From contig JAQUPI010000001.1 in assembly GCA_028716705.1 (NCBI GenBank), positions 65,614 through 129,613 of the forward strand: 64,000 nt of DNA, in the 5' to 3' direction. This stretch comes from Candidatus Omnitrophota bacterium. Lineage in GTDB: Bacteria > Omnitrophota > Gorgyraeia > Gygaellales > Profunditerraquicolaceae. Of this stretch, positions 13,065-41,923 are shown piece by piece. The notes below the pieces were generated by a model. It was not told the DNA's origin. It saw only the letters and a list, made by a program, of their open reading frames with translations, and did not search any database. The translations under genes and the position numbers were made by a program. How positions within the stretch are numbered: the stretch's first letter is position 1; each line of letters starts with the position of its first letter.

Positions 13065-13520
13065 ATGCGGCTTTCAGGGCACGTCATATGTACGCTGACC
13101 GTAAGCGGTTTGGTTTATTTTTTTCTTAAGTCCGCGGCGGCTTTTTTTGTATCGTTGGCCGCCGGGATCTTTATAGATATAGACCATGTCTTCGACTATT
13201 ACGTTCAACGCGGAATAACGCTGAATCCCGCGGATATATACTCCTGGTGCAACGATATAAAATATGATCTTATAATCCTGCTTTTTCATTCCCTGGAACT
13301 ATTGTTCTTATTGTGGGCCGCGGTTTTTCTTTTTGACCTGGGAATAATCTGGTTCTCGCTGGCGATCGGCCTGACTCAACACATGGCCCTTGATGTATTA
13401 TCTAACCGCAAAAAGATCGGCGTAACCGGTTATTTTCTTTTATTCAGGATGGCCAAAGGCTTTAAGAAAGAAGGCATAATGCGCGATAGCGCCCTCCTTG
13501 AAAACGGCAGGTTTTCATAG
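13065..13520 (+). CDS. Small membrane protein, possibly YdjM-type membrane-bound metal-dependent hydrolase
   Basis: 151 aa, 3-4 TM, N-terminal …SGHV… and conserved His/Asp. The assignment is weak. Confidence 0.35.
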   Translation: MRLSGHVICTLTVSGLVYFFLKSAAAFFVSLAAGIFIDIDHVFDYYVQRGITLNPADIYSWCNDIKYDLIILLFHSLELLFLLWAAVFLFDLGIIWFSLAIGLTQHMALDVLSNRKKIGVTGYFLLFRMAKGFKKEGIMRDSALLENGRFS

Positions 13521-13532
13521 TATACTTAAAAT

Positions 13533-13676
13533 GCCGATAAAGGTAAACCCGCCGAAAGGCGGGGACGCAAAGCCACAGGCCTAAATTGGCGGAGTTTTAA
13601 TAGATTGAAGCCGACATGGCAGCTGGGTTGCCGAAATGAGTAAAGAGGTGATGCTTTTAAGAGCACCTTTATCGGC
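13533..13676 (+). promoter_or_regulatory. Class I c-di-GMP riboswitch (GEMM) aptamer with 12-bp closing helix
   Basis: The core AAAGGUAAACC-CGCC-GAAA-GGCG-GGGACGCAAAGCC-ACAGGCCUAAA … GCUGGGUUGCCGAAA matches the Vc2 / GEMM-I consensus (GGCAAACC…GAAA…GGGACGCAAAGCC…GGCCUAAA…GGGUUACCGA). The outer helix gccgataaaggt (13533-44) pairs with acctttatcggc (13665-76). Confidence 0.75.
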
Positions 13677-13684
13677 TGATTTCA

Positions 13685-13713
13685 AAATCCCAACTTTTTT
13701 GTTGGGATTTTTT
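13685..13713 (+). terminator. Intrinsic terminator (likely riboswitch expression platform)
   Basis: aaatcccaac-tttttt-gttgggattt followed by a T-run, 27 nt upstream of the GTG start at 13740. Confidence 0.7.
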
Positions 13714-13739
13714 ATTTTAAGGTGTTATAATAAAAAACA

Positions 13740-15713
13740 GTGGACCCGATAACCAAAGAAAACATACTTCAGGAGATCCCCTTATTCACCGGCCTTGTTG
13801 CCGGCCAGCGCCTCATTATCTCCCAGCGCAGTTCCCTCAAAGAGTATAAAAAAGGGCAGATCATTTACCAGGAAGGCTCAGCCGGAGAGGCGTTTTATAT
13901 CGTGGTTCTGGGCAGGGTTATAATCTATACGCAGGATGCCCGGGGTAACGAGTCGCCGCTGGAATATCTGCACAGGGGTAAATATTTCGGTATCATTTCA
14001 CTGCTTACCGGGGATTCGCATTCGGTAAGCGCGAAAGCCGTAAATGACTGCCTGTTATTGATCATCAACAGGGAAGATTTTGATTTTATCCTTAAGGAGA
14101 TCCCTGGCTTAGCCATTGACTTAAGCCGGACTTTGTCCCGTCGGTTAAAACGCAAGGATATCCATCAAAAGATTATCTTCGAAAGCGCGGCTATTTCTAT
14201 ATTCAGTTCATATTCAAGGGCAGGCAAGACGGTTTACGCCCTGAATTTGGCTTTAAGCCTGGCAAAAGAGACGCGTAAATCAGTGATCATCTTGGATATC
14301 CTTCCCCAGGGTAAAACCTACAGCCTCCCCCGCCGTCTGGGTATCGCCGGAGTTTACCCGGTTTTTGAGCTTTCCGTTTTAGAAAGGGTTAACCCTCAAG
14401 GCATAGGTGAATTCCTGCTTAAGGACAATTTCGGCATAGATATGGCCGCCCTTTCATATAATCCCGGGGATAAATTGACGCTCAGAAGGCTAACCGACCT
14501 GTTAAGTTTACTGGTTAACGATTACCATTATATAATCCTCGACCTGCCCAGCGACATGGATAGGAATATCCTGGAGATGCTTAACCAATCGGACCTGATC
14601 CATGTTTTGACCAGCCCCGAAGAAATAGACCTTAAAAGGACGGCTAATTTGATCGCCAGGCTCAAGGCGGATTTTAACTTTCATGAAGATAAAATAAAGG
14701 TGATCATTAATGAATATAAAGAATCAAAACTCCGGCATAAACAACAAACAGACCTGTTGAACCAGCCCATTTTCGCCACCCTCCCGAAGATAGGTTTCAG
14801 CTCTTCGGATAAGATGGTATTGGACGAACCTGAATGCGAATACGCGAGGGCGGTAAGAAGGATGGCCCGAAAACTAAGCGATTCCCAGGTGGGATTGGCC
14901 TTGGGCGTGGGCGTTGCTTACGGTTTTTGCCACATAGGCGTCCTGAAGGTAATAGAAGAAGAGAAGATCCCCATTGATGTGATCTCCGGCTCTAGTGTGG
15001 GAGCGCTTATCGCCAGCCTATGGGTCACAGGCAAGTCAAGCGCGGAGATACTTGAGATCACCAGGGAATTCAAAGGGCCAAAAAACATATGGGGGATCAT
15101 AGACCTGACATTTCCGATCCTGGGTTTTATTAAAGGCAATAAGCTTTACAGGATCCTGAAAAAGCATTTAGGCGCGAAGACGTTTTATGACGTAAAGCTG
15201 CCGCTTAAGATCGTAGCCAGCGACGTAAAGAGAAAAGAGCCGATAGTTTTCGAGAGCGGCCTGCTTGTGGACGCGATAATGGCCAGCTGCTCGATGCCGG
15301 GAGTATTCGCGCCTTTCCGGCTTAAACAGGGCTTTCTCTTTGACGGCGGAGTGATCAACCCCCTGCCCACTGAGCCTTTATTTGCGATGGGAGTAAAAAA
15401 GATCATCGCCGTAAACGTCACTCCTTCCAGGGAGGACGTGCTTAAGCAATATGAAAAAATAAAAGGCGCGGAGCCTACCGGGAAGCCTCAAAATAAGCTC
15501 AAAACTAATATACTCGATATTATCTTCAGCAGTATTGAAATATTGCAGTCCGAAGTAGCCGGAAAAGAAGCGCAACTGGCCGATGTCGTTTTGCATCCGG
15601 ACACATCCGGGCTTTATTGGCTGGAGCTTCACCGGGCAAAGGAATTCGCCGAAAGAGGGGAAGAAGAGGCGCGCAGGAACCTGAACAGGATATGGCAGGT
15701 GATCAACGAATAA
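13740..15713 (+). CDS. Three-domain protein: N-terminal cyclic-nucleotide-binding domain, central degenerate ParA/MinD/CpaE-like P-loop domain, C-terminal patatin-like phospholipase
   Basis: GTG start. Residues ~10-130 form a CAP_ED-like beta-roll (…GQIIYQEGSAGEAFYIVVLGRV…). Residues ~150-370 carry a deviant Walker A (SSYSRAGKT) and a hhhhD Walker B (YIILDLPSD). The C-terminal patatin domain has GVGVAYGFCHIGVLK (oxyanion), GSSVG (GxSxG) and DGGVINPLP (catalytic Asp). Confidence 0.75.
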   Translation: MDPITKENILQEIPLFTGLVAGQRLIISQRSSLKEYKKGQIIYQEGSAGEAFYIVVLGRVIIYTQDARGNESPLEYLHRGKYFGIISLLTGDSHSVSAKAVNDCLLLIINREDFDFILKEIPGLAIDLSRTLSRRLKRKDIHQKIIFESAAISIFSSYSRAGKTVYALNLALSLAKETRKSVIILDILPQGKTYSLPRRLGIAGVYPVFELSVLERVNPQGIGEFLLKDNFGIDMAALSYNPGDKLTLRRLTDLLSLLVNDYHYIILDLPSDMDRNILEMLNQSDLIHVLTSPEEIDLKRTANLIARLKADFNFHEDKIKVIINEYKESKLRHKQQTDLLNQPIFATLPKIGFSSSDKMVLDEPECEYARAVRRMARKLSDSQVGLALGVGVAYGFCHIGVLKVIEEEKIPIDVISGSSVGALIASLWVTGKSSAEILEITREFKGPKNIWGIIDLTFPILGFIKGNKLYRILKKHLGAKTFYDVKLPLKIVASDVKRKEPIVFESGLLVDAIMASCSMPGVFAPFRLKQGFLFDGGVINPLPTEPLFAMGVKKIIAVNVTPSREDVLKQYEKIKGAEPTGKPQNKLKTNILDIIFSSIEILQSEVAGKEAQLADVVLHPDTSGLYWLELHRAKEFAERGEEEARRNLNRIWQVINE

Positions 15714-15726
15714 ATAGGGAGGCCTA

Positions 15727-16209
15727 ATGATGTTCAAAGCTCGATCTTTGAAGCTCAGGGAAGTCCTGATCATATGTTTTTTAATTTCTAATCTCACCGG
15801 CTGCGCGACCATAATAGAATCCTGCAAGGGTTTGGCCGGAGTTTCCACGCGCTCGGTAGAGGACGCGCGGAAAAACGCGATAAAAAAGGCTTATAATTAT
15901 GATTATTCTTCCTGCGTTTCCCAGGTAAGGGACATACTTAAGGGGATAAGATCGTACATTTACGCCGATAATGGAAGGAAACAAATGATCGCCGTATATT
16001 TATCCGAGGAGGATACTACCCCGGTTGGAATATTTTTTAAAGAAATAGACCCGAAGAGCACGCAGGTAGAGGTTTCTTCTCCGAGCACTTACGCCAAAGA
16101 GTTTATTTCTGGGAAGATATCCGATGTTTTGGAGAAAAAGATCACCCTTGAAGAATTGGAGGCCGAAATAAATGCGAAAAGAAAAGAAGACGATAGCGAA
16201 ACTGATTAA
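15727..16209 (+). CDS. Lipoprotein of unknown function
   Basis: RBS GGAGG, signal peptide with lipobox LTGC, 160 aa. No recognised domain. Confidence 0.5.
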   Translation: MMFKARSLKLREVLIICFLISNLTGCATIIESCKGLAGVSTRSVEDARKNAIKKAYNYDYSSCVSQVRDILKGIRSYIYADNGRKQMIAVYLSEEDTTPVGIFFKEIDPKSTQVEVSSPSTYAKEFISGKISDVLEKKITLEELEAEINAKRKEDDSETD

Positions 16210-16480
16210 CGAATGCCACGGCATCGCTAAAGAAAAAGGCTGGTGGGAGAGCGAACGTAATGATGGAGAGCTCATCGCGCTTATGCACTCTGAATTGTCC
16301 GAAGCCCTTGAGGCGATGCGCAGCCACGGGACAAAAGATAATATCGCCGAAGAATTAGCGGACTGCTGTATCCGCATCTTCGATTATTGCGGGGCCAGGG
16401 GAATCGACCTGGAAAAAATGCTGGTTAAGAAGATCGAATATAATAAGACCCGTCCTTACCGGCACGGGAAGAAGTTTTAA
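16172..16480 (+). CDS. Small MazG-like nucleotide pyrophosphohydrolase (all-alpha NTP-PPase)
   Basis: 102 aa. …GWWE…HSELSEALEA… and …EELADCCIRIFDYC… fit the MazG EExxE / EExxD metal-binding helices. 5' end overlaps the upstream lipoprotein gene by 38 nt. Confidence 0.6.
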   Translation: MRKEKKTIAKLINECHGIAKEKGWWESERNDGELIALMHSELSEALEAMRSHGTKDNIAEELADCCIRIFDYCGARGIDLEKMLVKKIEYNKTRPYRHGKKF

Positions 16481-21457: not shown

Positions 21458-21545
21458 GCATTTAATTTACATCTTCCGGTAAGCAAAGTCAAGATTGTCA
21501 ATATAATCCTTAGCATTTTGGATGACCTAGTGATATAATTTTATT

Positions 21546-22766
21546 ATGATGAAATTTCCGAAAGATTTCCTTTGGGGGGCGGCGACAAGCGCTTACCAGG
21601 TCGAAGGCAACAATAAAAACAGCGATTGGTGGGAATGGGAAAGCTCCTCCGGGAAAGAGCGTTCGGCAGAGGCCTGCAGGCATTATCAATTTTACGAGCA
21701 GGACTTTGACCTCGCGAAAGGATTAAACCATAATGCCCACCGCCTCTCCATCGAATGGAGCCGCATTGAACCTGAAAAGGGGAAATTTTCGGAAAGCGAA
21801 CTGGGGCATTATCTTGACGTCATTACCTCCCTTAAGAAACGCGGTATCGAGCCGTTGGTTACGCTGCATCATTTTACTAACCCGCTTTGGCTAAGCAGGT
21901 CGGGAGGATGGGCAAGCAGGCGGGCCATCGCGGCATTCTTACGTTACTGCAATTTTATTGTTCCCGCGCTCGCTAAACATGTCCGTTATTGGTTTACCAT
22001 AAACGAACCTAATGTCTATGTTTATCACGCCTATATTTTGGGGGTATGGCCTCCTCAGAAAAAGTCTTATTTTAAGGCCAAGGCGGCGGAGGGCAATCTT
22101 CTCCGGGCGCATATTAAGGCCTACCGCTTGATATATAAAATCTACAGGCGTTCAAAGCTCGCTGTGCCTAATGTCAGTTTTGCCCATAACACCATGTCTT
22201 TCGTTCCCTGTACGCGGAGATTGAAAGACCGGCTTGCCGCCAGGCTGAGAGATAATTGGTATAATTTCGGGCCGCTGAATAAAGTTATTAAGCGCAAGGC
22301 CCTGGATTTTATCGGTATAAATTATTATTCCAGGCAGTTGGTTGACTTGAAAAAGTGGGGGATACGGAACCTGGCTGTGGACACATGCGATAAAAACCAC
22401 CATCCCGTAAAAAAGAACTCTTTGGGCTGGGATATTTATCCGCAAGGCCTGTACGAGCTGCTCTTAAAGCTTAGAAAATACAACCTGCCTGTAATTATCA
22501 GCGAAAACGGGATCTGTACGCAAGACGATAATTTACGCTGGGAGTATATTCATGAGCACCTTAAACATATCCATATGGCCATGAATAAGGGCGCCGAGGT
22601 GCGGGGATATCTTTACTGGTCGCTTTTGGACAATTTTGAGTGGGACAAGGGTTTTGGCCCGAGGTTCGGCCTTATTCATGTGGATTACGATAGTTATAGA
22701 AGGACGGTGAAGGAAAGCGCCAGGAAATTGGCGGAGGTAAGCAAAACCGGCTATTTAGCCGTATGA
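21546..22766 (+). CDS. Glycoside hydrolase family 1 beta-glucosidase
   Basis: FLWGAATSAYQVEGN, NHNAHRLSIEWSRIEP, TINEPNVY (acid/base Glu) and ISENG (nucleophile Glu) motifs. Confidence 0.85.
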   Translation: MMKFPKDFLWGAATSAYQVEGNNKNSDWWEWESSSGKERSAEACRHYQFYEQDFDLAKGLNHNAHRLSIEWSRIEPEKGKFSESELGHYLDVITSLKKRGIEPLVTLHHFTNPLWLSRSGGWASRRAIAAFLRYCNFIVPALAKHVRYWFTINEPNVYVYHAYILGVWPPQKKSYFKAKAAEGNLLRAHIKAYRLIYKIYRRSKLAVPNVSFAHNTMSFVPCTRRLKDRLAARLRDNWYNFGPLNKVIKRKALDFIGINYYSRQLVDLKKWGIRNLAVDTCDKNHHPVKKNSLGWDIYPQGLYELLLKLRKYNLPVIISENGICTQDDNLRWEYIHEHLKHIHMAMNKGAEVRGYLYWSLLDNFEWDKGFGPRFGLIHVDYDSYRRTVKESARKLAEVSKTGYLAV

Positions 22767-22861
22767 GGAAAAAAGTCAATAAATAAGAGAACGGTCAAGT
22801 TTACAAAGTTAATTTTAATGATAAGATTTTTAGGGCGTAATATACGCCTGGGGAGGTCATA

Positions 22862-25108
22862 ATGCGCAGGGCCCTTCTTTTTATTCTGCCGATCCTGGTC
22901 ATTGTCTCGCTTGCCTTTACGGTCTTCGGCGTGATCCAGGTTCGTTACGAAGAAGAGAAGCTCATGGACGACCTGCAAAGAAAGGCTAACGCCGTCTGCG
23001 AGACCCTGGTCTTTTCCGCTAGGCACATACTTCTCAATAACGACTTAAAAAACGCCAACAGGCTTGTGGAGAGTTTCCAAAAAAGGGAGAGGCTTCAGGG
23101 CTGCGTGATATACGGTAAAGACGCTAAAATACTCGCGATCACGGAAAGGATCTCTGACTGGCAGCAAAAAGACAGGCCTTACCTGAACGATGTGTTGCTA
23201 AATAAAGAACCGCGTGCGGCGTTTGAGGAATTCAGGGGGTATTCAGTTTACAGCTATATTTTACCCGTTACCGATGAAGAAAGCAACGCCCTGGGCCTGG
23301 TAGAGGTAGTCTACGATACGTCTTTTGTTTTCACGACGCTGGCAGCTTTATGGAAACGCTTAAGCTTATCTTTGATAATCTTGCTGGTCTTGATCGTGCT
23401 GGTAATGCTCTTGATACAAAGGCGGATATTCACCCTGCCTATTGTCAGGCTCACCGAATGGTTCCATTATTTCCAAAAGGGCGTTACAGATATGCCGCAC
23501 CCCATCAAGGAAAAGAGCGAATTGGGAAAGCTCGCCAGTGAAGTAGAACAGGTCGCGCTCAGCTTAAGAGTGGCGCGCAGGACAATTTCCGATGAGGCGC
23601 TTACGCGTCTTGAAAAAGAAGAGATCTGGACCGAGGCGAAATTAAGAGACCTGATCCACGCCAAGCTGGGCGAGCACGCGCTTTTTGTGGTATCGAACAG
23701 AGAGCCATACATGCATGTTATAGACGAGATCAGCGGCAAACCGAAATGCTTACGGCCGGCAAGCGGCGTAGTTACGGCCATACACCCGATATTATGCGCC
23801 TGCGGGGGCACATGGATCGCCCATGGAAGCGGCAACGCTGACAGGAAATTCGTCAATTCAAAAGACAAGCTCGGGGTCCCGACCGAAGACAACCGCTATA
23901 TCCTGAAACGGGTGTGGTTGACCAAGGAAGAGGAGGAAGGGTATTATTACGGATTTGCCAATGAAGGCCTCTGGCCGCTCTGCCATAATACGCATACCAG
24001 GCCTATATTCAGGGAGGCAGACTGGCAGATGTACAAAAAGGTGAACCGCAAATTCTGCGACAGCGTCTTGGAGGAACTGCCCGCGAAGAACCCTTTTTTA
24101 TTCATACAGGACTATCACTTTACCCTGCTGGCCAAAATGATCAAAGAGAAAAGGCCCGACGTGAGAATCGCCCTGTTTTGGCATATACCGTGGCCCAATC
24201 CGGAGAATTTCTCGATCTGCCCGTACCAGGAAGAGATCCTGGACGGCATGCTGGGATGCGATCTGATCGGTTTTCACGTACAAAACCATTGTAATAATTT
24301 CCTTGATACCGCCAACAGGCTCCTTGAATCCAGGGTGGACACAGAAAAATTCAGCGTTGTCCGTTTTGGAAAAGAAACGTTTGTCAGGGCTTTCCCCATA
24401 AGCGTAAACGGCCACGCCAACGGTAAAGGCAGCTTCAAGGTGGAACCGGAAAGGGAGATCGAGAAATTAAGGAAAGAATATGAGCTGGAAGGGAAGATCG
24501 TGGGTATCGGTGTGGACAGGATAGATTACACAAAAGGCATTGTTGAAAGGGTCCTGGCTATTGACAGGTTCCTGGAAAAATACCCGGAGTACAGGAAAAA
24601 GCTGGTGTTTATCCAGTTGGCCGCGCCCAGCCGCACGCACATCAAGCGTTATCACGACCTGATGGGCGAGATCGATGAGCTGATAGAGAAGACGAATTGG
24701 AAGTACATGGATGGCAACTGGGCGCCGATCATTTACCTGAAGAGGTATTTTTCTTCCGATGAGATAGAGCCTTTTTATATGCTGGCGGATTTTTGTGTCG
24801 TAAGTTCCCTGCACGACGGAATGAACCTGGTGGCTAAGGAATTTGTCGCCTCCAGGAGCGATTTAAACGGCGCTCTGATCCTCAGCCAATTTACGGGAGC
24901 GGCCAGGGAACTCACGGATTCCATACAGATCAACCCTTATTCCATAGAAGATTTCGCCGACAGCATAAAGCTTGCCATAGAAATGCCGCCGGAAGAAAAA
25001 AGAAGGCGCATGGAGAATATGCACAAGCAGATAACCGAGAATAACGTCTATCGTTGGGCGGCGAATATCATTGTTGATCTAACCGCTTTAAAAAACATAC
25101 AGGCTTAA
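22862..25108 (+). CDS. otsA: Membrane sensor-HAMP-trehalose-6-phosphate synthase (GT20/OtsA) fusion
   Basis: TM1 (aa 5-25), ~140 aa extracytoplasmic segment, TM2 (LSLSLIILLVLIVLVMLLI), HAMP-like linker, then an OtsA domain (…IQDYHFTLLA…, FWHIPWPNPE…, …ADFCVVSSLHDGMNLVAKEF…). Confidence 0.8.
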   Translation: MRRALLFILPILVIVSLAFTVFGVIQVRYEEEKLMDDLQRKANAVCETLVFSARHILLNNDLKNANRLVESFQKRERLQGCVIYGKDAKILAITERISDWQQKDRPYLNDVLLNKEPRAAFEEFRGYSVYSYILPVTDEESNALGLVEVVYDTSFVFTTLAALWKRLSLSLIILLVLIVLVMLLIQRRIFTLPIVRLTEWFHYFQKGVTDMPHPIKEKSELGKLASEVEQVALSLRVARRTISDEALTRLEKEEIWTEAKLRDLIHAKLGEHALFVVSNREPYMHVIDEISGKPKCLRPASGVVTAIHPILCACGGTWIAHGSGNADRKFVNSKDKLGVPTEDNRYILKRVWLTKEEEEGYYYGFANEGLWPLCHNTHTRPIFREADWQMYKKVNRKFCDSVLEELPAKNPFLFIQDYHFTLLAKMIKEKRPDVRIALFWHIPWPNPENFSICPYQEEILDGMLGCDLIGFHVQNHCNNFLDTANRLLESRVDTEKFSVVRFGKETFVRAFPISVNGHANGKGSFKVEPEREIEKLRKEYELEGKIVGIGVDRIDYTKGIVERVLAIDRFLEKYPEYRKKLVFIQLAAPSRTHIKRYHDLMGEIDELIEKTNWKYMDGNWAPIIYLKRYFSSDEIEPFYMLADFCVVSSLHDGMNLVAKEFVASRSDLNGALILSQFTGAARELTDSIQINPYSIEDFADSIKLAIEMPPEEKRRRMENMHKQITENNVYRWAANIIVDLTALKNIQA

Positions 25109-25116
25109 GGCAACGG

Positions 25117-25908
25117 ATGGAGCATCTTTTTAAGGATTGGGAGGGCAGAAAAAAAGAATTCTCAGGGAAGACCCTGGCCTTTTTCTTTGATTTCGACGGT
25201 ACGCTTACGCCTATTGTAAGAAACCCGGGAAAGGCAGCCTTGCCTTTAGGAGTCAGAGGGCTGTTAAGAAAAATATCGGTAAACGGCAGGCACAGGCTGG
25301 CCATTGTAAGCGGCAGGGCGCTGGCGGACATTAAGAAAAAGATAAGCATCAGCGGTATAACCTACGTTGGCAATTACGGCCTGGAAATAGACGGGCCGAA
25401 GATAAGTTTCAGCAGCCCCGTTTCCCCCGGTTATAAAAAGGCGCTCAAATGCATAAAGAACTATATCAGCGATAGGATCGCCGTTATCAACGGCGCGCTG
25501 TTGGAGGATAAGGGTTTATCGTTGAGCCTTCATTACCGCCTTGCGCAGAGGAGTCAGATACCCAAAATAAAGAGCATTTTGCTTGAAGCGCTGACAATGT
25601 ATTCGGCCACGGATAAGATAAAAATAAATCTTGGGAAGAAGGTCTTTGAGATCCGTCCGGCCGGAGAATGGGGGAAGGGTAAGGTCGTGTTATGGCTTTT
25701 GGCGAGATGGCGGTTTAATAATAAGGACAAGGAAGTACTGCCTATTTATGCCGGAGACGATACAAGCGATGAAGAAGCCTTTAAGGCCCTGCGGAATGAG
25801 GGTATTACCATATTTGTGGGAGAAGCAAAGAAATCCTGCGCCCGCTATTATCTTAAAGATACAAGGGAAGTAAAAAATTTCTTGAAAGAAATTTCTAACC
25901 TGCGATAA
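25117..25908 (+). CDS. otsB: Trehalose-6-phosphate phosphatase (HAD superfamily)
   Basis: FFFDFDGTLTP (DxDGT motif I) and …GDDTSDEEAF (motif IV). Adjacent to otsA. Confidence 0.75.
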   Translation: MEHLFKDWEGRKKEFSGKTLAFFFDFDGTLTPIVRNPGKAALPLGVRGLLRKISVNGRHRLAIVSGRALADIKKKISISGITYVGNYGLEIDGPKISFSSPVSPGYKKALKCIKNYISDRIAVINGALLEDKGLSLSLHYRLAQRSQIPKIKSILLEALTMYSATDKIKINLGKKVFEIRPAGEWGKGKVVLWLLARWRFNNKDKEVLPIYAGDDTSDEEAFKALRNEGITIFVGEAKKSCARYYLKDTREVKNFLKEISNLR

Positions 25909-25914
25909 AAGACA

Positions 25915-26583
25915 ATGGAAGAATTAATAAAAGCGAAAGAGCCGTTCAGGTTTTACACTAGGCTGCATTTAACTGAATTGACGGGGCTTCGCGCCTCCAC
26001 ATTGAACCAGCTGTTGGGCCTGCTCAGGGAAGTTCCTGATGCCTGTATTTACCATCACACGCACAGGTTCTTGCAGCAGCACCAGTATCTTTCTCCCGAG
26101 CCGCCGAATGATTTTGCCTATTGGGTAAGCGAGATACTGGGGGAAGACAATCTCGGGGAAAGATTAGCCAGTATTGACACGATACAATTCTCCACTATCA
26201 GCGGATTACGGGAAGAGATAATCAGGACAATAGAGGAGTATTTAAAGACAAATACGTTAGCTAAAATGAGGTTCGCGGGGGAAGGGGAAGAGTTTTATTT
26301 CATAAAGTCGGTAAGCTTTATCCTCCCGACAGAATATACGGTCAACGACCTTAAGGAATTCGTGGAAGTATTGAAGAAAATAACCATAGATTCCATATAC
26401 TTTCATATTTTCGAGGCCCGCTTGAGGCTGGGCAAGGGCGGTAACGACTTTTCCAACTGGATAGAAAGCTCCATCGGAGATAAACAATTAGCCGCGAGGA
26501 TCGCCAGGCTTGATCCTTATACCCATACCCTGGAAGACCTGCGCAATAACTTGTTAAAGATCATAAGCAACAGGATCGCTTAA
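25915..26583 (+). CDS. Conserved hypothetical protein in trehalose cluster
   Basis: 222 aa soluble, no recognisable motif. Start sits 7 nt after the otsB stop; its stop is 2 nt before the treT start. Confidence 0.4.
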   Translation: MEELIKAKEPFRFYTRLHLTELTGLRASTLNQLLGLLREVPDACIYHHTHRFLQQHQYLSPEPPNDFAYWVSEILGEDNLGERLASIDTIQFSTISGLREEIIRTIEEYLKTNTLAKMRFAGEGEEFYFIKSVSFILPTEYTVNDLKEFVEVLKKITIDSIYFHIFEARLRLGKGGNDFSNWIESSIGDKQLAARIARLDPYTHTLEDLRNNLLKIISNRIA

Positions 26584-26584
26584 G

Positions 26585-27796
26585 ATGCCAAGCATAGAAG
26601 AATATATACCCATTGTCGGAGAATCCACCATATACGACCTAAGGTTGATCACCGAAAGGTTAAAGGGCAAGGTCATACAGCATGTGAATTCTACCGCTGT
26701 GGGCGGGGGAGTGGCGGAAATATTAAACCGTATGGTCCCCTTATGCAAGGAGCTTGGCGCCGATGTAAGGTGGGAAGTGATCAAAGGCGGAGAACAATTC
26801 TTTGAAGTCACCAAGAAATTCCATAATGTCCTTCACGGCAGGCGTGAAGAGATCACCCAGAATGATTTTGATGTCTTTATGGAGACCAGCGAAAAGAATA
26901 TCAATGAAGCAAATATTTACGGCGACATTATTTTCATACATGACCCCCAACCGGTAGCTTTAATAAAGAAGAAGAAGGAGAATAAGTGGATCTGGCGCTG
27001 CCACATCGATGTTTCCAACCCGGATCAAACGGTATGGCAATTCCTGGTAAACTTTATCGAGCAATACGATTCGGCTGTTTTTTCCGCCCCTTCTTTTTCC
27101 CGCAGGCTGCCGGTCAAGCAGTTCATGATCCCTCCCTCCATCGATCCCTTAAGCGACAAAAATAAAGAGCTGCCGCAGGAAACCATAGATAAAATTTTAA
27201 ACAAATACAGTATCGTAAAAGATAAACCTATAATTACCCAGATATCAAGGTTTGACCGCTTAAAGGACCCTGTGGGGGTCATCGACGCTTATCTTCAGGT
27301 GAAAAGATATGTAGATTGCCAGCTCATTTTGGCGGGAGGGGGCGCTACTGACGACCCTGAAGGCCCGAAAGTCTTTGAAGAAGTGCAGGAACTGGCAAAA
27401 AAGGATAAAGATATACATATTTTATTGCTGCCGCATAACGATATAGAGGTAAATGCCTTGCAGAGAGCCTCGACCATCATCATCCAAAAATCGTTGCGGG
27501 AAGGCTTTGGATTGACCGTAGCCGAAGCCCTCTGGAAGGGTAAACCCGTAGTTGCTTCGAATGTCGGCGGGATCCCGCTGCAGATCAAGCACAGGTATTC
27601 GGGCCTGCTATGCCATTCAATCCAGGGGGCAAGCTTTGCCTTAAAACAGCTTCTGAACAGCCCGGAATACGCGAAGAAATTGGGGCAAAATGGAAGGGAA
27701 CATATAAAAAATAATTTCCTTATTACGCGCCACCTCAGGGACCACATGCTCTTATTCCTTTCTTTATACCATAAAGAGGATATAGTCTACCTGTAA
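26585..27796 (+). CDS. treT: Trehalose glycosyltransferring synthase TreT-like GT4 glycosyltransferase
   Basis: HVNSTAVGGGVAEIL, HDPQPVAL, WRCHIDVS, MIPPSIDPLSDKN, IITQISRFDRLKD, DDPEG, REGFGLTVAEALWKGKPV: a motif-by-motif match to archaeal/bacterial TreT as I recall it. Confidence 0.7.
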   Translation: MPSIEEYIPIVGESTIYDLRLITERLKGKVIQHVNSTAVGGGVAEILNRMVPLCKELGADVRWEVIKGGEQFFEVTKKFHNVLHGRREEITQNDFDVFMETSEKNINEANIYGDIIFIHDPQPVALIKKKKENKWIWRCHIDVSNPDQTVWQFLVNFIEQYDSAVFSAPSFSRRLPVKQFMIPPSIDPLSDKNKELPQETIDKILNKYSIVKDKPIITQISRFDRLKDPVGVIDAYLQVKRYVDCQLILAGGGATDDPEGPKVFEEVQELAKKDKDIHILLLPHNDIEVNALQRASTIIIQKSLREGFGLTVAEALWKGKPVVASNVGGIPLQIKHRYSGLLCHSIQGASFALKQLLNSPEYAKKLGQNGREHIKNNFLITRHLRDHMLLFLSLYHKEDIVYL

Positions 27797-28383: not shown

Positions 28384-28456
28384 GCTGGCGTAGCTCAGTT
28401 GGTAGAGCAGCGCTTTCGTAAAGCGCGGGTCGGAGGTTCAATTCCTCTCGCCAGCT
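28384..28456 (+). tRNA. tRNA-Thr (CGU)
   Basis: Acceptor GCTGGCG/CGCCAGC. Anticodon arm GCGCT-TTCGTAA-AGCGC gives CGT. T-arm GGAGG-TTCAATT-CCTCT. Confidence 0.85.
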
Positions 28457-39593: not shown

Positions 39594-39601
39594 TTTAAAA
39601 G

Positions 39602-39632
39602 CCCTGTAAGTTTTTGAATTACAGGGTTTTTT
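39602..39632 (+). terminator. Intrinsic terminator after tRNA-Met
   Basis: ccctgtaa-gtttttgaa-ttacaggg followed by tttttt. Confidence 0.7.
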
Positions 39633-39660
39633 ATTGTGGTATAATTAAAAGCGGCCTAAA

Positions 39661-40044
39661 ATGAAAAAAATTATTCTGACCTTTTCCTTAATAATCTGCT
39701 TTGTCCTGCCTCTTCTTGCCCTTGATGAAGCCGAAAAAGAGAAGGCCAAAAAGGAATTCCAGGATCTAAAAGCCGCCTTCGAGGAAGAGATCTCTTACCC
39801 GCCTTACTCGGAATACACTTTTACGGACAGGTATTGGGATTCAGATAGCGGCCGCGAGATAATCGCTATGGGTAAAAAAGCCCTGCCTTTTATCATTCAG
39901 GAGATCAGTTATGGAAAATCCTGGTATTGCGCCGCGGCGCAAAGGATTACCGGTGTAAAAATGCGCGGGCCCAGGCCCGAAGACCTGGCGGAACAATGGC
40001 TGCGATGGTGGGAAGAAAATAAGGAGGGAATTTCCTATGAGTAA
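39661..40044 (+). CDS. Secreted protein of unknown function
   Basis: Signal peptide MKKIILTFSLIICFVLPLLA, 127 aa. Confidence 0.45.
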   Translation: MKKIILTFSLIICFVLPLLALDEAEKEKAKKEFQDLKAAFEEEISYPPYSEYTFTDRYWDSDSGREIIAMGKKALPFIIQEISYGKSWYCAAAQRITGVKMRGPRPEDLAEQWLRWWEENKEGISYE

Positions 40045-40567
40045 AAAAACGGTATTATTGAGTTTGATTTTATTCGTTTTTCCCGTTTATTCCGCTTTTA
40101 GTCAAGAAGGCGCTCCCGAATATCCGCCGGTAGAAAGCCAGACGTCTACTGATGCGCAAGGGGGCAGGTACGTGCTGGTTACGGTAAATAAGTCCGGCTC
40201 ATACGCCGCGTCGACATATTCCAGCGGCACGAGCGGAGCCAGGATACTGCAAAAAAAGACGCCGGCGGCGGTGCTGGACAGTTACATGGGCGTAGTTTAC
40301 AGATGCACGGACATAAAAGCTGAGAGGCCTTTATGGATCAAATCGGACTTAGGCAAGAATTCCGGGAAGACCATTTCCAAGAAGAAATATTCCATAACCG
40401 TGCCCGCGTATTCGGGGGAGGATTATAAGATCCCGGCGATCGTTCTGGATATCGATGAAGGCAAAGCCTGGGTCTGTTCGGACCTGGTTTCCGAGAGTTC
40501 CATCTGGATCCAGACCGACCTGCCGAAAGAGATAACTAAAGAAGGCTATCAATACCGCTATCAGTAG
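40037..40567 (+). CDS. Secreted protein of unknown function
   Basis: Signal peptide MSKKTVLLSLILFVFPVYSAFS, 176 aa. Overlaps the upstream stop. Confidence 0.45.
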   Translation: MSKKTVLLSLILFVFPVYSAFSQEGAPEYPPVESQTSTDAQGGRYVLVTVNKSGSYAASTYSSGTSGARILQKKTPAAVLDSYMGVVYRCTDIKAERPLWIKSDLGKNSGKTISKKKYSITVPAYSGEDYKIPAIVLDIDEGKAWVCSDLVSESSIWIQTDLPKEITKEGYQYRYQ

Positions 40568-40576
40568 GGTTTTTTA

Positions 40577-40604
40577 TTGCCAACAGCCCTATTTCTGGTA
40601 TAAT
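40577..40604 (+). promoter_or_regulatory. Sigma70-like promoter of purine operon
   Basis: TTGCCA - 16 nt - TATAAT, 27 nt upstream of the purB ATG. Confidence 0.4.
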
Positions 40605-40630
40605 AATATTTTCTAAAAGGGAGAAAAATA

Positions 40631-41923
40631 ATGATCGAGCGTTATTGCCTGCCTAAGATGTCGAAGATATGGCGGGATGAGTTTAAATTCAAGGCGATGC
40701 TTGATATAGAGATACTCGCTTTGGAAGCCCTTACCCGCAATAAATGCATTCCCCCAGCCGCGGTCAAAAGGATCAAGAGCAAAGCCAAATTCAATATAAA
40801 GGAAATAAAGAAGCTTGAAGAAAAGACCCAACACGATGTAGTGGCATTTGTCTGCAATGTAGCCCAATATATCGGGCCTGACGCCAAATACCTGCATATG
40901 GGGTTAACTTCTTCGGATATACTGGATACAACCCTTGGAGTTCAGCTTAACGCCGCTTCTGACATACTCATTGATGATGTAAACAGGCTGCTAAAAGTGT
41001 TGGCCATGAAGGCGAAAAATTACAAAGATATGGTCTGTGTCGGCCGCACGCATGGCGTCCATGCTGAGCCTATGACTTTCGGTTTGAAATTCGCTCTTTG
41101 GTTTGACGAAATGAAGCGTAACTTAGAGCGCCTGAAACTGGCAAAAGAGGAAGCGGCGGTGGGCAAGATTTCCGGCGCTGTAGGTACATTCGCGAATATC
41201 GACCCGGAGGTTGAGGCATATGTTTGCAAGAAATTAGGCCTTAAGGCGGCTAAAATTTCTACGCAGGTGATCCAAAGAGACATCTACGCCGTCTTTATGG
41301 CCAGATTAGCGATAATTGGTTCCAGCCTCGAGAAGTTCGCCACGGAGATCAGGCATTTACAGAGGACGGAAGTTTTGGAAGCGGAGGAACCCTTCGGGAA
41401 GGGCCAAAAGGGTTCTTCAGCTATGCCGCATAAACGTAATCCGGTAATCTGCGAACGTATCTGCGGTCTCAGCCGTATTCTCAGAGGAAACTCCTTAGTC
41501 GCTATGGAGAATGTCGCGCTATGGCATGAGCGGGATATCAGCCATTCTTCGAGCGAGCGGGTGATCATGCCGGATTCTACCATCCTTCTTGATTATATGC
41601 TGAACAAATTCATCGAAGTCATTGAGGGGTTGACAGTCCATCCTGAGAACATGCTGGCAAATCTGGTAAAGACGAAAGGGCTGATCTTCTCCCAGAGACT
41701 TCTTTTAGAGTTAATGAACAAAGGCCTTAGCCGGCCTGAAGCTTATGACCTGGTGCAAAAGGTGGCTATGCAAGCTTGGAAGCGAAGCGCGGATTTCAAG
41801 GAGCTGCTCTTAAAAGAGAGCGAAATTTTGCGTTATCTTGACGCGAAGGAATTGGACGAGATATTTGACCTGGATTATTACCTTCGCAACATAAAAAAGG
41901 TTTTCGATAGAGTCGGTTTGTAA
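40631..41923 (+). CDS. purB: Adenylosuccinate lyase
   Basis: MIERYCLPKMSKIWRDEFKFKAMLDIEILALEA… and the fumarate lyase signature GSSAMPHKRNP. Confidence 0.9.
   Translation: MIERYCLPKMSKIWRDEFKFKAMLDIEILALEALTRNKCIPPAAVKRIKSKAKFNIKEIKKLEEKTQHDVVAFVCNVAQYIGPDAKYLHMGLTSSDILDTTLGVQLNAASDILIDDVNRLLKVLAMKAKNYKDMVCVGRTHGVHAEPMTFGLKFALWFDEMKRNLERLKLAKEEAAVGKISGAVGTFANIDPEVEAYVCKKLGLKAAKISTQVIQRDIYAVFMARLAIIGSSLEKFATEIRHLQRTEVLEAEEPFGKGQKGSSAMPHKRNPVICERICGLSRILRGNSLVAMENVALWHERDISHSSSERVIMPDSTILLDYMLNKFIEVIEGLTVHPENMLANLVKTKGLIFSQRLLLELMNKGLSRPEAYDLVQKVAMQAWKRSADFKELLLKESEILRYLDAKELDEIFDLDYYLRNIKKVFDRVGL

Follow-up and report, generated by a model that had tools for sequence, protein, structure and literature searches.

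The locus described here raises the question of whether a c-di-GMP-type riboswitch upstream of an unusual three-domain lipase gene in an Omnitrophota contig does so. The sequence-only reading of this DNA had proposed a double cyclic-nucleotide gate, in which c-di-GMP sensing by the RNA and cyclic-nucleotide sensing by the protein converge on one lipase. The window, i.e., the whole stretch of 64,000 nucleotides that was analysed, contains the following elements, of which P1, P2 and T2 are consensus predictions.

13498-13526, + strand: P1, a sigma-70-like promoter of the riboswitch RNA (TTGAAA-17-TATACT, consensus match)
13533-13636, + strand: c-di-GMP-I-type aptamer (Rfam RF03167)
13533-13544, + strand: segment A, the 5' strand of the aptamer, GCCGAUAAAGGU, including the junction AAAGG
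13548-13563, + strand: P1a with its GAAA tetraloop (direct reading)
13644-13650, + strand: segment B, a decoy copy of A, AGAGGUG, which can pair with CACCUUU at 13664-13670
13665-13676, + strand: segment C, the anti-aptamer strand ACCUUUAUCGGC, with 12 perfect pairs to A
13684-13720, + strand: T2, a predicted intrinsic terminator, AAAAUCCCAAC-UUUUUU-GUUGGGAUUUU plus U-tract
13702-13731, + strand: P2, a promoter-like element (-35 TTGGGA, 18-nt spacer, extended -10 TGTTATAAT)
13740-15713, + strand: lipase gene (CNB-like/ParA-like/patatin, 657 aa, GTG start), an ORF with a 100%-identical database protein of the same length (P0001)
15727-16209, + strand: downstream lipoprotein-like gene (lipobox LTGC, GGGAGG Shine-Dalgarno)
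21531-22766, + strand: displaced GH1 glycosidase gene (GH1 21546-22766), with its own TGATATAAT-6 nt-ATG

The aptamer is genuine and, judged by its sequence, of the canonical c-di-GMP-I type. In an Rfam covariance search, 13533-13636 matched RF03167 at 73.4 bits against a gathering score of 59 (E 1.7e-15), and its place in the c-di-GMP-I clan, CL00126, is borne out by helix covariation, with double compensatory changes in seven P1a/P1b pairs across nine orthologues, and by the GNRA tetraloop and its receptor; direct reading of P1b revealed the receptor-like motif CCUAAA...CAUGG, of the form CCUAAA...(C/U)AUGG. Like members of RF01051 (c-di-GMP-I, GEMM-I), such as Vc2 of Vibrio cholerae, it combines a three-helix junction with a GAAA-capped P1a, a CCUAAA/UAUGG-type receptor in P1b, and the junction nucleotides AAAGG, GACGC-A-AA and UUG-C-C. 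The canonical ligand-contact bases of the junction, namely G13542/G13543, A13569 and C13631, which we take to correspond to G20/A47/C92 of Vc2, are identical in 13 of 13 orthologues. The GEMM-I aptamer of the sequence-only reading therefore stood as regards the clan, the score and the covarying helices, but the best Rfam model is RF03167, not RF01051; the window's own RF01051 score was masked by clan competition, and a trimmed query again returned RF03167 alone. The orthologous leaders scored 47.7-78.4 bits with RF01051 (gathering score 35), which was the best model for 11 of them, RF03167 being the best for the window and for L013 (59.6 bits).

This ranking could point to membership of the c-di-GMP-I-GGC variant class and to a ligand other than c-di-GMP. 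The two Rfam consensus lines, from which alone we derived the sense of 'GGC', differ at one junction position, which reads GACGC-G-AA in RF03167 and GACGC-A-AA in RF01051. The G that RF03167 expects after GACGC (consensus GACGCGAA) is A13569 in the window, where the match line is blank, and the canonical A is likewise found in all 13 orthologues. Moreover, RF03167 prevails only where P1b carries a long insertion, and such an insertion is what favours it in the window. Considering also the 11 orthologues that fit RF01051 best, we regard a different ligand as very improbable.

The 12-bp helix that had been described as closing the aptamer is indeed present, perfect and conserved, but its role is a different one: it pairs the ligand-contact strand, and since it uses the J1/2 nucleotides AAAGG that the folded aptamer needs, it is an anti-aptamer and not a closing helix. 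Thirteen orthologous leaders retain the A-C helix, 90% of the cells being paired against 26-52% in a slide control; L003 shows a compensatory change from U-A to C-G, and the L022-type leaders a U-G wobble. Segments B and C also co-vary between loci, as GGUG/CACC, GGCA/UGCC and GGGU/ACCC. A formal covariation test of A-C, in which the 14 counted pairs comprised the 12-bp helix and one flanking position on each side, was not significant in the shuffle control, because the aptamer fixes A and 10 of the 14 pairs are thus invariant. The predicted A-C pairing is supported by the fact that C is conserved although the rest of the spacer varies, by the slide control and by the single compensatory change. 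The switch would be formed by a decoy (B) and a remote 12-bp strand (C), unlike in the known c-di-GMP-I riboswitches, and the terminator lies outside it and is followed by a promoter. It is to be noted that the canonical P1 helix of the aptamer is down to about 2 bp. Two other roles for this region were considered and dropped. An AUG that comes after B, both in the window and in the L001-type leaders, could start a leader peptide, but this codon is absent in L014 and L022 and lies too near the Shine-Dalgarno-like sequence; masking by C of the AAGGUG upstream of the ORF would require a complementary hexamer that is not conserved (L003, L014, L017, L022).

The intrinsic terminator reported after the aptamer was recovered, with a stem at 13684-13711 followed by a U-run, as was the GTG-initiated ORF of 657 aa downstream of it. 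The distance to the start codon is 104 nt from the aptamer and 29 nt from T2. T2 appeared in the minimum-energy folds of five leaders, with or without the aptamer constrained, and so the folding comparison that had been suggested for deciding the logic of the switch made no riboswitch-gated terminator evident. In the same five leaders, constrained folds and a search for the best duplexes of either T2 arm with all upstream sequence returned no conserved antiterminator, the best competing duplexes reaching -7 to -13 kcal/mol without being conserved; a comparison by hand of B, the 3' strand of P1b and the spacer as competitors yielded no conserved partner either. A terminator stem that excludes an aptamer-dependent antiterminator was therefore not found. 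Furthermore, T2 together with a TGnTATAAT element is present in six loci that have no riboswitch (L005, L006, L029, L031, L035 and L042), L028 retaining only a remnant of P1. Since this terminator-promoter module occurs without the riboswitch and T2 takes part in no alternative pairing, a simple circuit from riboswitch through terminator to lipase is not evident. T2 contains only 4 G-C pairs, however, so that substantial read-through is possible. In the L001-type leaders, an extra strong terminator (12 pairs and U8) lies between the switch and P2, and these leaders still hold an intact, covarying aptamer of 76-78 bits.

In the window as well as in L001, P1 and P2 both fit the promoter consensus. 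The predicted start of P1 transcripts, at about 13532-13534, coincides with the first base of the aptamer, and all orthologous leaders that bear the riboswitch share CTTGAAAA-N17-TATACTT. The -35 element of P2, TTGGGA, falls within the 3' arm of T2, while its extended -10 lies at 13723-13731, between T2 and the GTG, and is conserved in all loci. The motif TGNTATAAT occurs six times, against 2.3 copies expected; a gene or tRNA begins shortly after five of the six copies, and, as with P2, two further copies come directly after terminators. The GTG is only 8 nt downstream of the P2 -10, for which reason the lipase mRNA is probably leaderless, and in most loci the start codon follows the -10 by 6-12 nt and has no Shine-Dalgarno sequence. 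GUG-initiated leaderless mRNAs are unusual outside actinobacteria, which counts against a leaderless, separately promoted lipase.

Gene order bears on the same question. In nearly all relatives, some 30 Omnitrophota loci among them, the GH1 gene lies directly 5' of the lipase gene and separates it from the leader; in the window it is found 6 kb away from the lipase gene, and it is because of this move that the leader directly adjoins the lipase gene. The adjacency is thus a lineage-specific rearrangement. In every locus the lipoprotein-like gene comes next after the lipase gene, and it probably belongs to the same operon; MFS, PG-binding, lipoprotein, MazG-like and SNF genes make up the neighbourhood. 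As had been remarked, there is no cyclase partner among the neighbours, and the GG[DE]EF motif is absent from the 64 kb. The leader stays linked to the operon across lineages with 63-77% protein identity, a lasting linkage that could reflect function and not inheritance alone.

The explanation that we favour, with somewhat less than even confidence, is that two units lie side by side: an autonomous riboswitch RNA and a separately promoted, probably leaderless lipase gene. The RNA, of about 185 nt, would be transcribed from P1, start at the first base of the aptamer and end at T2. Without c-di-GMP, the 12-bp A-C pairing would unfold the ligand pocket; with A held in the aptamer by the ligand, C would pair with the decoy B instead. 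T2, outside the switch, would be older than the insertion of the riboswitch and would, where relatives have no riboswitch, terminate the gene upstream. The second unit would be the lipase gene under its own extended -10 promoter P2, which in the relatives would drive a GH1-lipase-lipoprotein operon; here, the relocation of GH1 by 6 kb downstream has left the lipase gene first in the operon. We infer that c-di-GMP acts on the conformation of the RNA, its stability or its capacity to buffer the ligand and, at most, modulates the minority of P1 transcripts that pass T2, which would not amount to a tight gate on the lipase. A precedent is the merRNA of Bdellovibrio bacteriovorus, a c-di-GMP riboswitch RNA of 445 nt that stands alone and has been proposed to act as a sponge or c-di-GMP buffer, for which massive expression was measured and which has no conserved downstream ORF (PMC3627812). 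The two would share a c-di-GMP-I aptamer in a discrete transcript, here delimited by a predicted promoter and terminator, with no obvious control over an ORF downstream; they differ in that the predicted RNA described here is followed by an ORF 29 nt after its terminator and has an anti-aptamer helix. Such a helix is superfluous for a pure sponge and thus argues against that particular reading.

Autonomy must also be weighed against the general rule that c-di-GMP-I riboswitches almost always regulate the next gene in cis, the one in the window being suitably placed and oriented to do so. In a classical cis-acting arrangement, c-di-GMP would decide whether P1 transcripts terminate before the ORF and would thereby gate the lipase, or GH1 and the lipase in the relatives. 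Such an arrangement would most plausibly be an ON switch. In the absence of ligand, transcription would end early at a U-rich tract next to either the A-C helix or a hairpin of the aptamer tail plus B with C; with ligand, the 3' half of C would be unpaired, so that the polymerase continues and partly reads through the weak T2. Many leaders do have U-rich tracts after C, and a U-run follows it after 2-5 nt in L038, L040, L014, L019 and L020, and either structure could therefore be a ligand-sensitive first terminator in those leaders; in the window (UGAUUUCAAAAU), L003 and L037 the tract is poor, and we have kept this candidate only as part of the cis-acting explanation. In conserving an anti-aptamer helix the leaders resemble a normal expression platform, the four G-C pairs of T2 would permit read-through, and the leader was kept when GH1 was lost from the locus, all of which agrees with control in cis. 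It agrees less well with the finding that no segment competes with T2, that T2 and P2 exist without the riboswitch, and that the L001-type leaders tolerate an additional constitutive terminator. A read-through mRNA, moreover, would have an internal start codon without a Shine-Dalgarno sequence at a usable distance, the AAGGUG lying 15 nt upstream. On balance, we consider cis regulation, in which the riboswitch would directly gate the lipase, unlikely here, albeit a serious contender.

Alternatively, the RNA might act in trans, with the ligand exposing either B (AGAGGUGAU, Shine-Dalgarno-like) or C (CACCUUU, anti-Shine-Dalgarno-like) to pair with other mRNAs or to sequester a protein, and with the A/U-rich spacer and terminator as an sRNA-type 3' module. 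A unit with its own predicted promoter and terminator, a switch that toggles single strands, and an A/U-rich spacer before the terminator hairpin would suit such a role, and riboswitch-derived trans-acting RNAs have been discussed (PMC3627812). Against it, no target has been identified, and the sequence of B varies by lineage, tracking C rather than an external partner, which leaves this alternative improbable.

The protein half of the proposed gate was examined through the three domains encoded by the lipase gene.

13839-14096, + strand: CAP/CNB-fold domain (Pfam, alignment and structure match)
14193-14882, + strand: MinD/ParA-fold domain (Pfam, profile and structure matches)
14895-15380, + strand: patatin domain, with GSSVG (Ser419) and DGG (Asp535) intact

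Pfam assigned cNMP_binding (PF00027) to aa 34-119 (5.7e-21, 74.7 bits against a cut-off of 27.5), CbiA to aa 152-350 (3.7e-8, 33.8 bits, cut-off 25.4) and Patatin (PF01734) to aa 386-547 (2.2e-28, 100.2 bits, cut-off 27.7). The AlphaFold model of the whole chain was weak (pLDDT 62.8, pTM 0.41; patatin domain mostly below 60), and only its CNB and ParA-fold matches were used, the packing of the domains being left uninterpreted. The beta-barrel of the first domain matched CAP and PKA-R domains in Foldseek with a probability of 1.0 and an rmsd of 2-3 A. Its cassette at aa 83-98, FGIISLLTGDSHSVSA, is non-canonical: FG-I85-ISLLT..P-H94-SV[TS]A aligns to FGELALL..PRAAT of PKA-R and lacks the FGE...R[ST]A contacts, Ile85 standing for Glu and His94 for Arg. 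In a canonical CNB cassette the Glu contacts the ribose 2'-OH and the Arg the phosphate. Both are lost in every aligned family member, H94 being invariant and I85 at least 90% conserved; the domain therefore probably binds another ligand or none. The CAP-type cNMP-binding domain thus held up in fold, Pfam score and cassette, but not in its ligand contacts, and the loss of the phosphate-binding cassette, which had been named as evidence against it, is half true: the cassette is there, its Glu and Arg contacts are gone. With T2 outside any competition, P2 in between, GH1 displaced and the cNMP contacts lost, the double gate on the lipase is mostly unsupported.

The degenerate MinD/CpaE-like P-loop domain that had been suggested was confirmed in fold. 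The minD_arch model aligns aa 152-381 to its positions 3-232 of 251, profile comparison with the PDB retrieved 3ea0 (2.5e-14) and 1g3q (1.5e-11), and Foldseek gave a target TM-score of 0.73 to 3ea0 (domain pLDDT about 65-84). Walker A reads S156-S-Y-S-R-A-G-K-T164 in the window clade and is devoid of the signature Lys of xKGGxGK[ST]. It is degenerate family-wide, distant members having GR[ST], GV[ST] or none, while the Walker B Asp268 is retained. Compared with the TadZ/CpaE-like and MinD/ParA SIMIBI proteins (3ea0, 1g3q), the match covers the full-length fold and the Walker B Asp is kept, and the P-loop of 3ea0 is itself atypical (KGGDGGS); it is set apart by the absent signature Lys, by a P-loop Lys that distant members have lost or replaced by Arg or Val, and by the fusion inside a lipase. 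The domain is probably a pseudo-ATPase, serving as a dimerisation or scaffold module.

The intact catalytic motifs claimed for the patatin domain were likewise confirmed, G417-S-S419-V-G421 and D535-G-G being invariant in 21 and in 40 sequences. The protein appears to be a patatin acyl-hydrolase of the RssA/PlpD type whose Ser-Asp dyad is intact. RssA/YchK and PlpD are the best matches of the lipase domain (NCBIfam RssA, 2.3e-30, below the equivalog cut-off; PlpD, PDB 5fqu, 1e-23) and share its GxSxG and DGG, but here the glycine-rich oxyanion motif GGGx[RK]G is replaced by GVGVAYG, with an invariant Tyr394 where PlpD has Arg, there are extra N-terminal domains, and there is no POTRA or beta-barrel. 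The protein recalls NTE/PNPLA6/Swiss-cheese, the eukaryotic CNB-domain patatin esterases, in that CNB-fold domain(s) stand on the N-terminal side of a patatin Ser-Asp hydrolase; it differs from them in its single CNB-like domain devoid of the Glu/Arg contacts, in the MinD/ParA-fold domain inserted before the lipase, and in that no transmembrane segment was noted. Many homologues are labelled 'NTE family protein' by JGI. With the CBASS CapV and Pycsar effectors the protein shares the concept of a nucleotide sensor joined to a membrane lipase, but the CapV resemblance that had been pointed out is confined to the domain level (CBASS_lipase 16.2 bits against a cut-off of 200; PycTIR CNB region 19 bits), with scores that fall far short of the cut-offs; there is no cyclase neighbour, and a housekeeping synteny is conserved across the phylum. 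A defence-system reading was thus set aside, PADLOC and NCBIfam giving matches at domain level only.

A literature search on the three-domain architecture and on c-di-GMP riboswitches in Omnitrophota found nothing specific. The architecture, which had not been recognised as a characterised system, indeed has no characterised homologue, but it is not rare: it occurs end to end in more than 100 clusters at 50% identity. The family is large, with hundreds of sequences from Omnitrophota and Nitrospirota, and it is unstudied, which makes it a good target in the search for a new ligand-controlled membrane-lipid hydrolase. For annotation, the lesson is that where a terminator-promoter module intervenes, a riboswitch lying beside a gene cannot be taken as evidence that it gates that gene.

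Omnitrophota are ultra-small, possibly predatory or parasitic bacteria that have no cultured model. Tentatively, and well short of a firm claim, we suggest that in this clade a c-di-GMP-I riboswitch may have become a free-standing small RNA gene, with its own promoter, an A/B/C toggle and a borrowed terminator, which would buffer c-di-GMP or act in trans and would lie before, yet be uncoupled from, a leaderless lipase operon whose product carries a ParA-fold pseudo-ATPase and a sensor repurposed from cNMP to some other ligand. If the RNA is autonomous, it would be the second, independent case, after merRNA of Bdellovibrio, of a c-di-GMP aptamer serving as an RNA in its own right, and its decoy-strand switch, if true, would represent a compact design principle.

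Across the 64 kb of the window, Rfam reported a single riboswitch (13533-13636, + strand). It matched RF03167 (c-di-GMP-I-GGC) with E 1.7e-15 and 73.4 bits against a gathering score of 59, and bears out the c-di-GMP aptamer that a sequence-only reading had placed here. The consensus lines of RF03167 and RF01051 are one junction base apart (GACGC-G-AA vs GACGC-A-AA). The window has an A at 13569, as do 13 of the 13 collected orthologous leaders, which scored 47.7-78.4 bits on RF01051; RF03167 was the best model only for the window and the related locus L013, both of which carry a long insertion in aptamer helix P1b. Compensatory changes were found in seven pairs of helices P1a and P1b among nine orthologues. 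On the strength of this A, the RF01051 scores of the orthologues and the compensatory changes, the window aptamer is read as a canonical-type c-di-GMP-I aptamer. The riboswitch is a new member of an already known class, and it is the layout around it that is unusual.

Features of the leader and the lipase gene in the window
Predicted promoter P1 of the riboswitch RNA: TTGAAA-17-TATACT, sigma-70-like consensus, ending at 13526, 6 nt ahead of the aptamer
Strand A (aptamer 5' strand): 13533-13544, GCCGAUAAAGGU, perfect complement of C
Segment B (decoy copy of A): 13644-13650
Strand C (anti-aptamer strand): 13665-13676, ACCUUUAUCGGC, perfect complement of A
Predicted intrinsic terminator T2: hairpin 13684-13711, followed by UUUUUUAUUUU
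Predicted promoter P2 (extended -10): 13702-13731, TTGGGA-18-TGTTATAAT, promoter consensus match in the window, L001 and L042
Lipase ORF: 13740-15713 (+), GTG start, 657 aa
cNMP_binding domain: aa 34-119, Pfam 5.7e-21
CbiA domain: aa 152-350, Pfam 3.7e-8, above cut-off
Patatin domain: aa 386-547, Pfam 2.2e-28

To place this locus among its relatives, 43 related loci (L001-L043) were fetched and compared by tblastn. All riboswitch-bearing leaders share the same succession of elements, namely P1 (CTTGAAAA-N17-TATACTT), an aptamer beginning AGCCGAUAAAGGUAAACC, a segment B that varies, strand C, which is conserved (CCUUUAUCGGC), a spacer rich in A/U, the T2 hairpin (CCCAAC...GUUGGGAUUUUUU), and TGnTATAAT with the start codon 6-12 nt further on and no Shine-Dalgarno sequence. 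In the variable region behind the aptamer, strand C alone is conserved. In 13 leaders, 90% of the A-C cells were paired, and sliding the 3' partner by 1-3 columns lowered this to 26-52%. Variation consisted of a U-A to C-G double change in L003 and of U-G in the L022-type leaders. The shuffle control for A-C was not significant: its role in the aptamer holds A constant, so that of the 14 pairs counted (12 in the helix and one neighbouring position at either end) 10 are invariant. Segment B resembles A, and its sequence changes in step with that of C (AGAGGUG/CACCUUU, AAGGCAA/UUGCCUU, AAGGGU/ACCCUU), the local B-C hairpins ranging from -9 to -16 kcal/mol against -20 to -25 kcal/mol for the A-C duplex. 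The perfect 12-bp helix that had been thought to close the aptamer does exist, but it consumes the junction AAAGG, which excludes a folded ligand pocket; as predicted from the pairing, A-C is thus an anti-aptamer helix and no closing stem. In the absence of ligand A-C would form, whereas bound ligand would keep A in the aptamer and leave C free to pair with B. Separately, at L019:398-470 an insertion or partial duplication of ~52 nt parts the aptamer 5' strand (GCCGATAAAGGTAAACC) from P1a, the Rfam match is confined to the proximal copy, beginning TTTCTAACGGGGTAAACC, and this aptamer has perhaps been inactivated or reassembled; the L016 sequence is truncated at the same place.

The terminator behaves differently from A, B and C. 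In five leaders, T2 is present in the minimum-energy structure whether A is available or not, and the best alternative partners for either of its arms are weak and not conserved; by these predictions T2 is no part of the switch. Of the earlier proposal of a riboswitch with an intrinsic terminator before the lipase gene, the terminator stands, while a coupling of riboswitch and gene is not evident. Furthermore, the module of T2 and TGnTATAAT lies between the peptidoglycan (PG)-binding gene and the operon in the riboswitch-less loci L005, L006, L029, L031, L035 and L042, and L028 retains only a P1 remnant fused to T2, so that the stretch from P1 to C, the riboswitch unit, seems to have been inserted behind the upstream gene and ahead of a terminator which that gene already had. 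In L001-type leaders an ~85-nt insertion inside the T2 loop adds a strong terminator (12 pairs and U8), and yet their aptamers are intact and covarying, which argues that the riboswitch RNA functions independently of read-through into the operon. This insertion, seen at L001:1640-1745 and likewise in L016, L017, L019 and L020, lengthens the stem, the second, stronger terminator being AAAGCTTCGGAG...CTCCGAAGTTTTTTTT. In L004:1615-1730 and L008:1612-1730, the space that separates the upstream gene from the terminator-promoter module is taken up by another sequence of ~100 nt, with a common CCUUUAGGG hairpin and an outer stem that differs between the two; it had no Rfam match at E < 0.5 and is possibly a different structured RNA that occupies this place.

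The 3' arm of T2 shows almost no variation, while the 5' arm varies (CCCAAC, CCCGAC, CCCAGC) with pairing kept through G-U, as expected if the 3' arm doubles as the -35 element of P2. The motif TGNTATAAT occurs six times in the window (2.3 expected), always on the + strand; five of the six copies directly precede a gene or tRNA, one with a perfect TTGACT -35, and two other copies are also directly behind terminator hairpins. At 39600-39663 and 40560-40633, TGGTATAAT and a gene come directly after an intergenic terminator hairpin with a T-run, and the tRNA at 28384 has the textbook promoter TTGACT-17-TGGTATAAT. Placing an extended -10 right behind a terminator seems to be a general feature of intergenic regions in this genome. 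Since only 8 nt separate the -10 of P2 from the lipase GTG, a lipase mRNA from this predicted promoter would be leaderless or nearly so; in mycobacteria, GUG-initiated leaderless mRNAs are robustly translated. In some relatives (L013:1470-1750, L020:1540-1780, L026:1560-1775, L034, L028), a MITE-like element of ~200-250 nt is inserted beside TGnTATAAT and parts the promoter from the start codon of the glycosidase gene, GH1; its ends are inverted (AAGTGAGYRCA...CCATAAGTTATGTGCTCATTT), and a second copy of the end lies at L020:648-660.

The conserved gene order is MFS transporter, PG-binding protein, leader, GH1 glycosidase, lipase, DUF3568-like lipoprotein, MazG-like protein and SNF transporter. 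In ~30 loci the GH1 gene (405-410 aa) ends at the lipase start codon or within a few bases of it, and the riboswitch, where present in the related loci, lies 5' of GH1, the lipase gene following ~1.3-1.7 kb downstream. A lipase gene without GH1 in front was found in only three cases: the window (with the identical 3-kb contig L011), L035, and L042/L043. JGI sample 3300029288 contains the identical contig. The window has its GH1 homologue elsewhere, at 21546-22766; it shares 63% identity with the L001 GH1 and has an TGATATAAT-6 nt-ATG of its own. As judged from this gene order, the adjacency of riboswitch and lipase is a derived, lineage-specific rearrangement. The window GH1 is the first gene of a cluster for trehalose synthesis (21531-27796; GT20 trehalose-6-P synthase, trehalose phosphatase, DUF5752, TreT-like synthase), which hints at a compatible solute or glycoside rather than a polymer as its substrate. 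In L007 (1726-1755) and L021, whose lipase is 72% identical, just 29 nt separate the PG-binding gene from GH1, and riboswitch, terminator and TGnTATAAT are all absent from this gap; GH1 and the gene before it are therefore probably transcribed together. Downstream of the lipase, every related locus has a lipoprotein-like gene (lipobox LTGC, weak DUF3568) and a 102-aa MazG-like gene, which in the window (15727-16480) overlap by ~40 nt.

The GTG-started, three-domain protein was recovered by Pfam as described before. Foldseek supported the CNB-like fold of its N-terminal domain, with structural matches that include the nucleoside-binding PKA-R domains of trypanosomes. Its cassette reads FG-I-ISLLT..P-H-SV[TS]A, vs FG-E-...-R-[ST]A of cNMP binders, and in the aligned family His94 is invariant and Ile85 nearly so. 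Since these residues replace the Glu and Arg of the cassette, canonical cAMP/cGMP binding is unlikely, and the strong conservation of the cassette suggests another ligand or a structural role. The degenerate MinD-type P-loop domain also held up: in profile searches against the PDB the whole domain matched ParA-family 3ea0 (2.5e-14; Foldseek target TM-score 0.73) and MinD 1g3q (1.5e-11), Walker A in the window clade (SSYSRAGKT) is without the signature Lys, the P-loop Lys is Arg, Val or missing in distant members, and Walker B Asp268 is invariant. We call it a putative MinD/ParA-fold pseudo-ATPase or weak nucleotide binder, and infer a role in dimerisation or as a scaffold. The patatin domain is closest to RssA and PlpD, and its catalytic Ser419 and Asp535 are intact, as had been noticed; in the oxyanion motif (GVGVAYG), Tyr replaces Arg. 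The whole-chain AlphaFold model was weak (pLDDT 62.8, pTM 0.41).

Among scored candidates, 787 lipase relatives were found at E < 1e-10, the top 120 being full-length proteins of Candidatus Omnitrophota MAGs, 65-77% identical and labelled 'patatin-like phospholipase family protein' or 'NTE family protein'. When 1.84 billion cluster representatives were searched exhaustively, end-to-end alignments with the lipase were obtained for >100 clusters at 50% identity, down to 28% identity, so that the three-domain architecture is common; named members were from Omnitrophota, plus one from Nitrospirota. A literature search found no published characterisation of this architecture, and the lipase family is large and uncharacterised. 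The suggested resemblance to CBASS CapV was not borne out beyond single domains, matches to CBASS and Pycsar effectors (PADLOC, NCBIfam) being sub-threshold and at the domain level only, and a defence-system reading was rejected on these grounds and because the synteny is housekeeping-like. The GG[DE]EF motif is absent from the window.

Overall, the sequence features described at the locus (aptamer, 12-bp helix, terminator, GTG ORF and domains) were all confirmed. However, the idea that cyclic-nucleotide sensing by RNA and by protein converges on the lipase fails as stated, because coupling is not evident, the adjacency is lineage-specific, and the protein sensor lacks the cNMP contacts. The main rival to our own reading is a conventional cis ON-switch, in which the A-C helix, or a helix of the tail with B-C, would terminate early at a U-rich tract without ligand, and a weak T2 would leak. 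L038, L040 and L014 suit this model more than the window does: the tract after C is poor in the window, and L038 and L040 have good U-tracts there. We consider the model rather unlikely. We tentatively prefer, at somewhat less than an even chance, two adjacent units. One would be an autonomous c-di-GMP-responsive RNA, from P1 to T2, toggling between the A-C form with an unfolded pocket and the aptamer with B-C; the Bdellovibrio merRNA is a precedent for an autonomous riboswitch RNA (PMC3627812). The other would be the near-leaderless lipase mRNA from P2, which in relatives encodes GH1, lipase and lipoprotein. With these two units, c-di-GMP would affect how stable the riboswitch RNA is, how much it can buffer or which of its strands are exposed, and would at most tune the share of P1 transcripts that pass T2.
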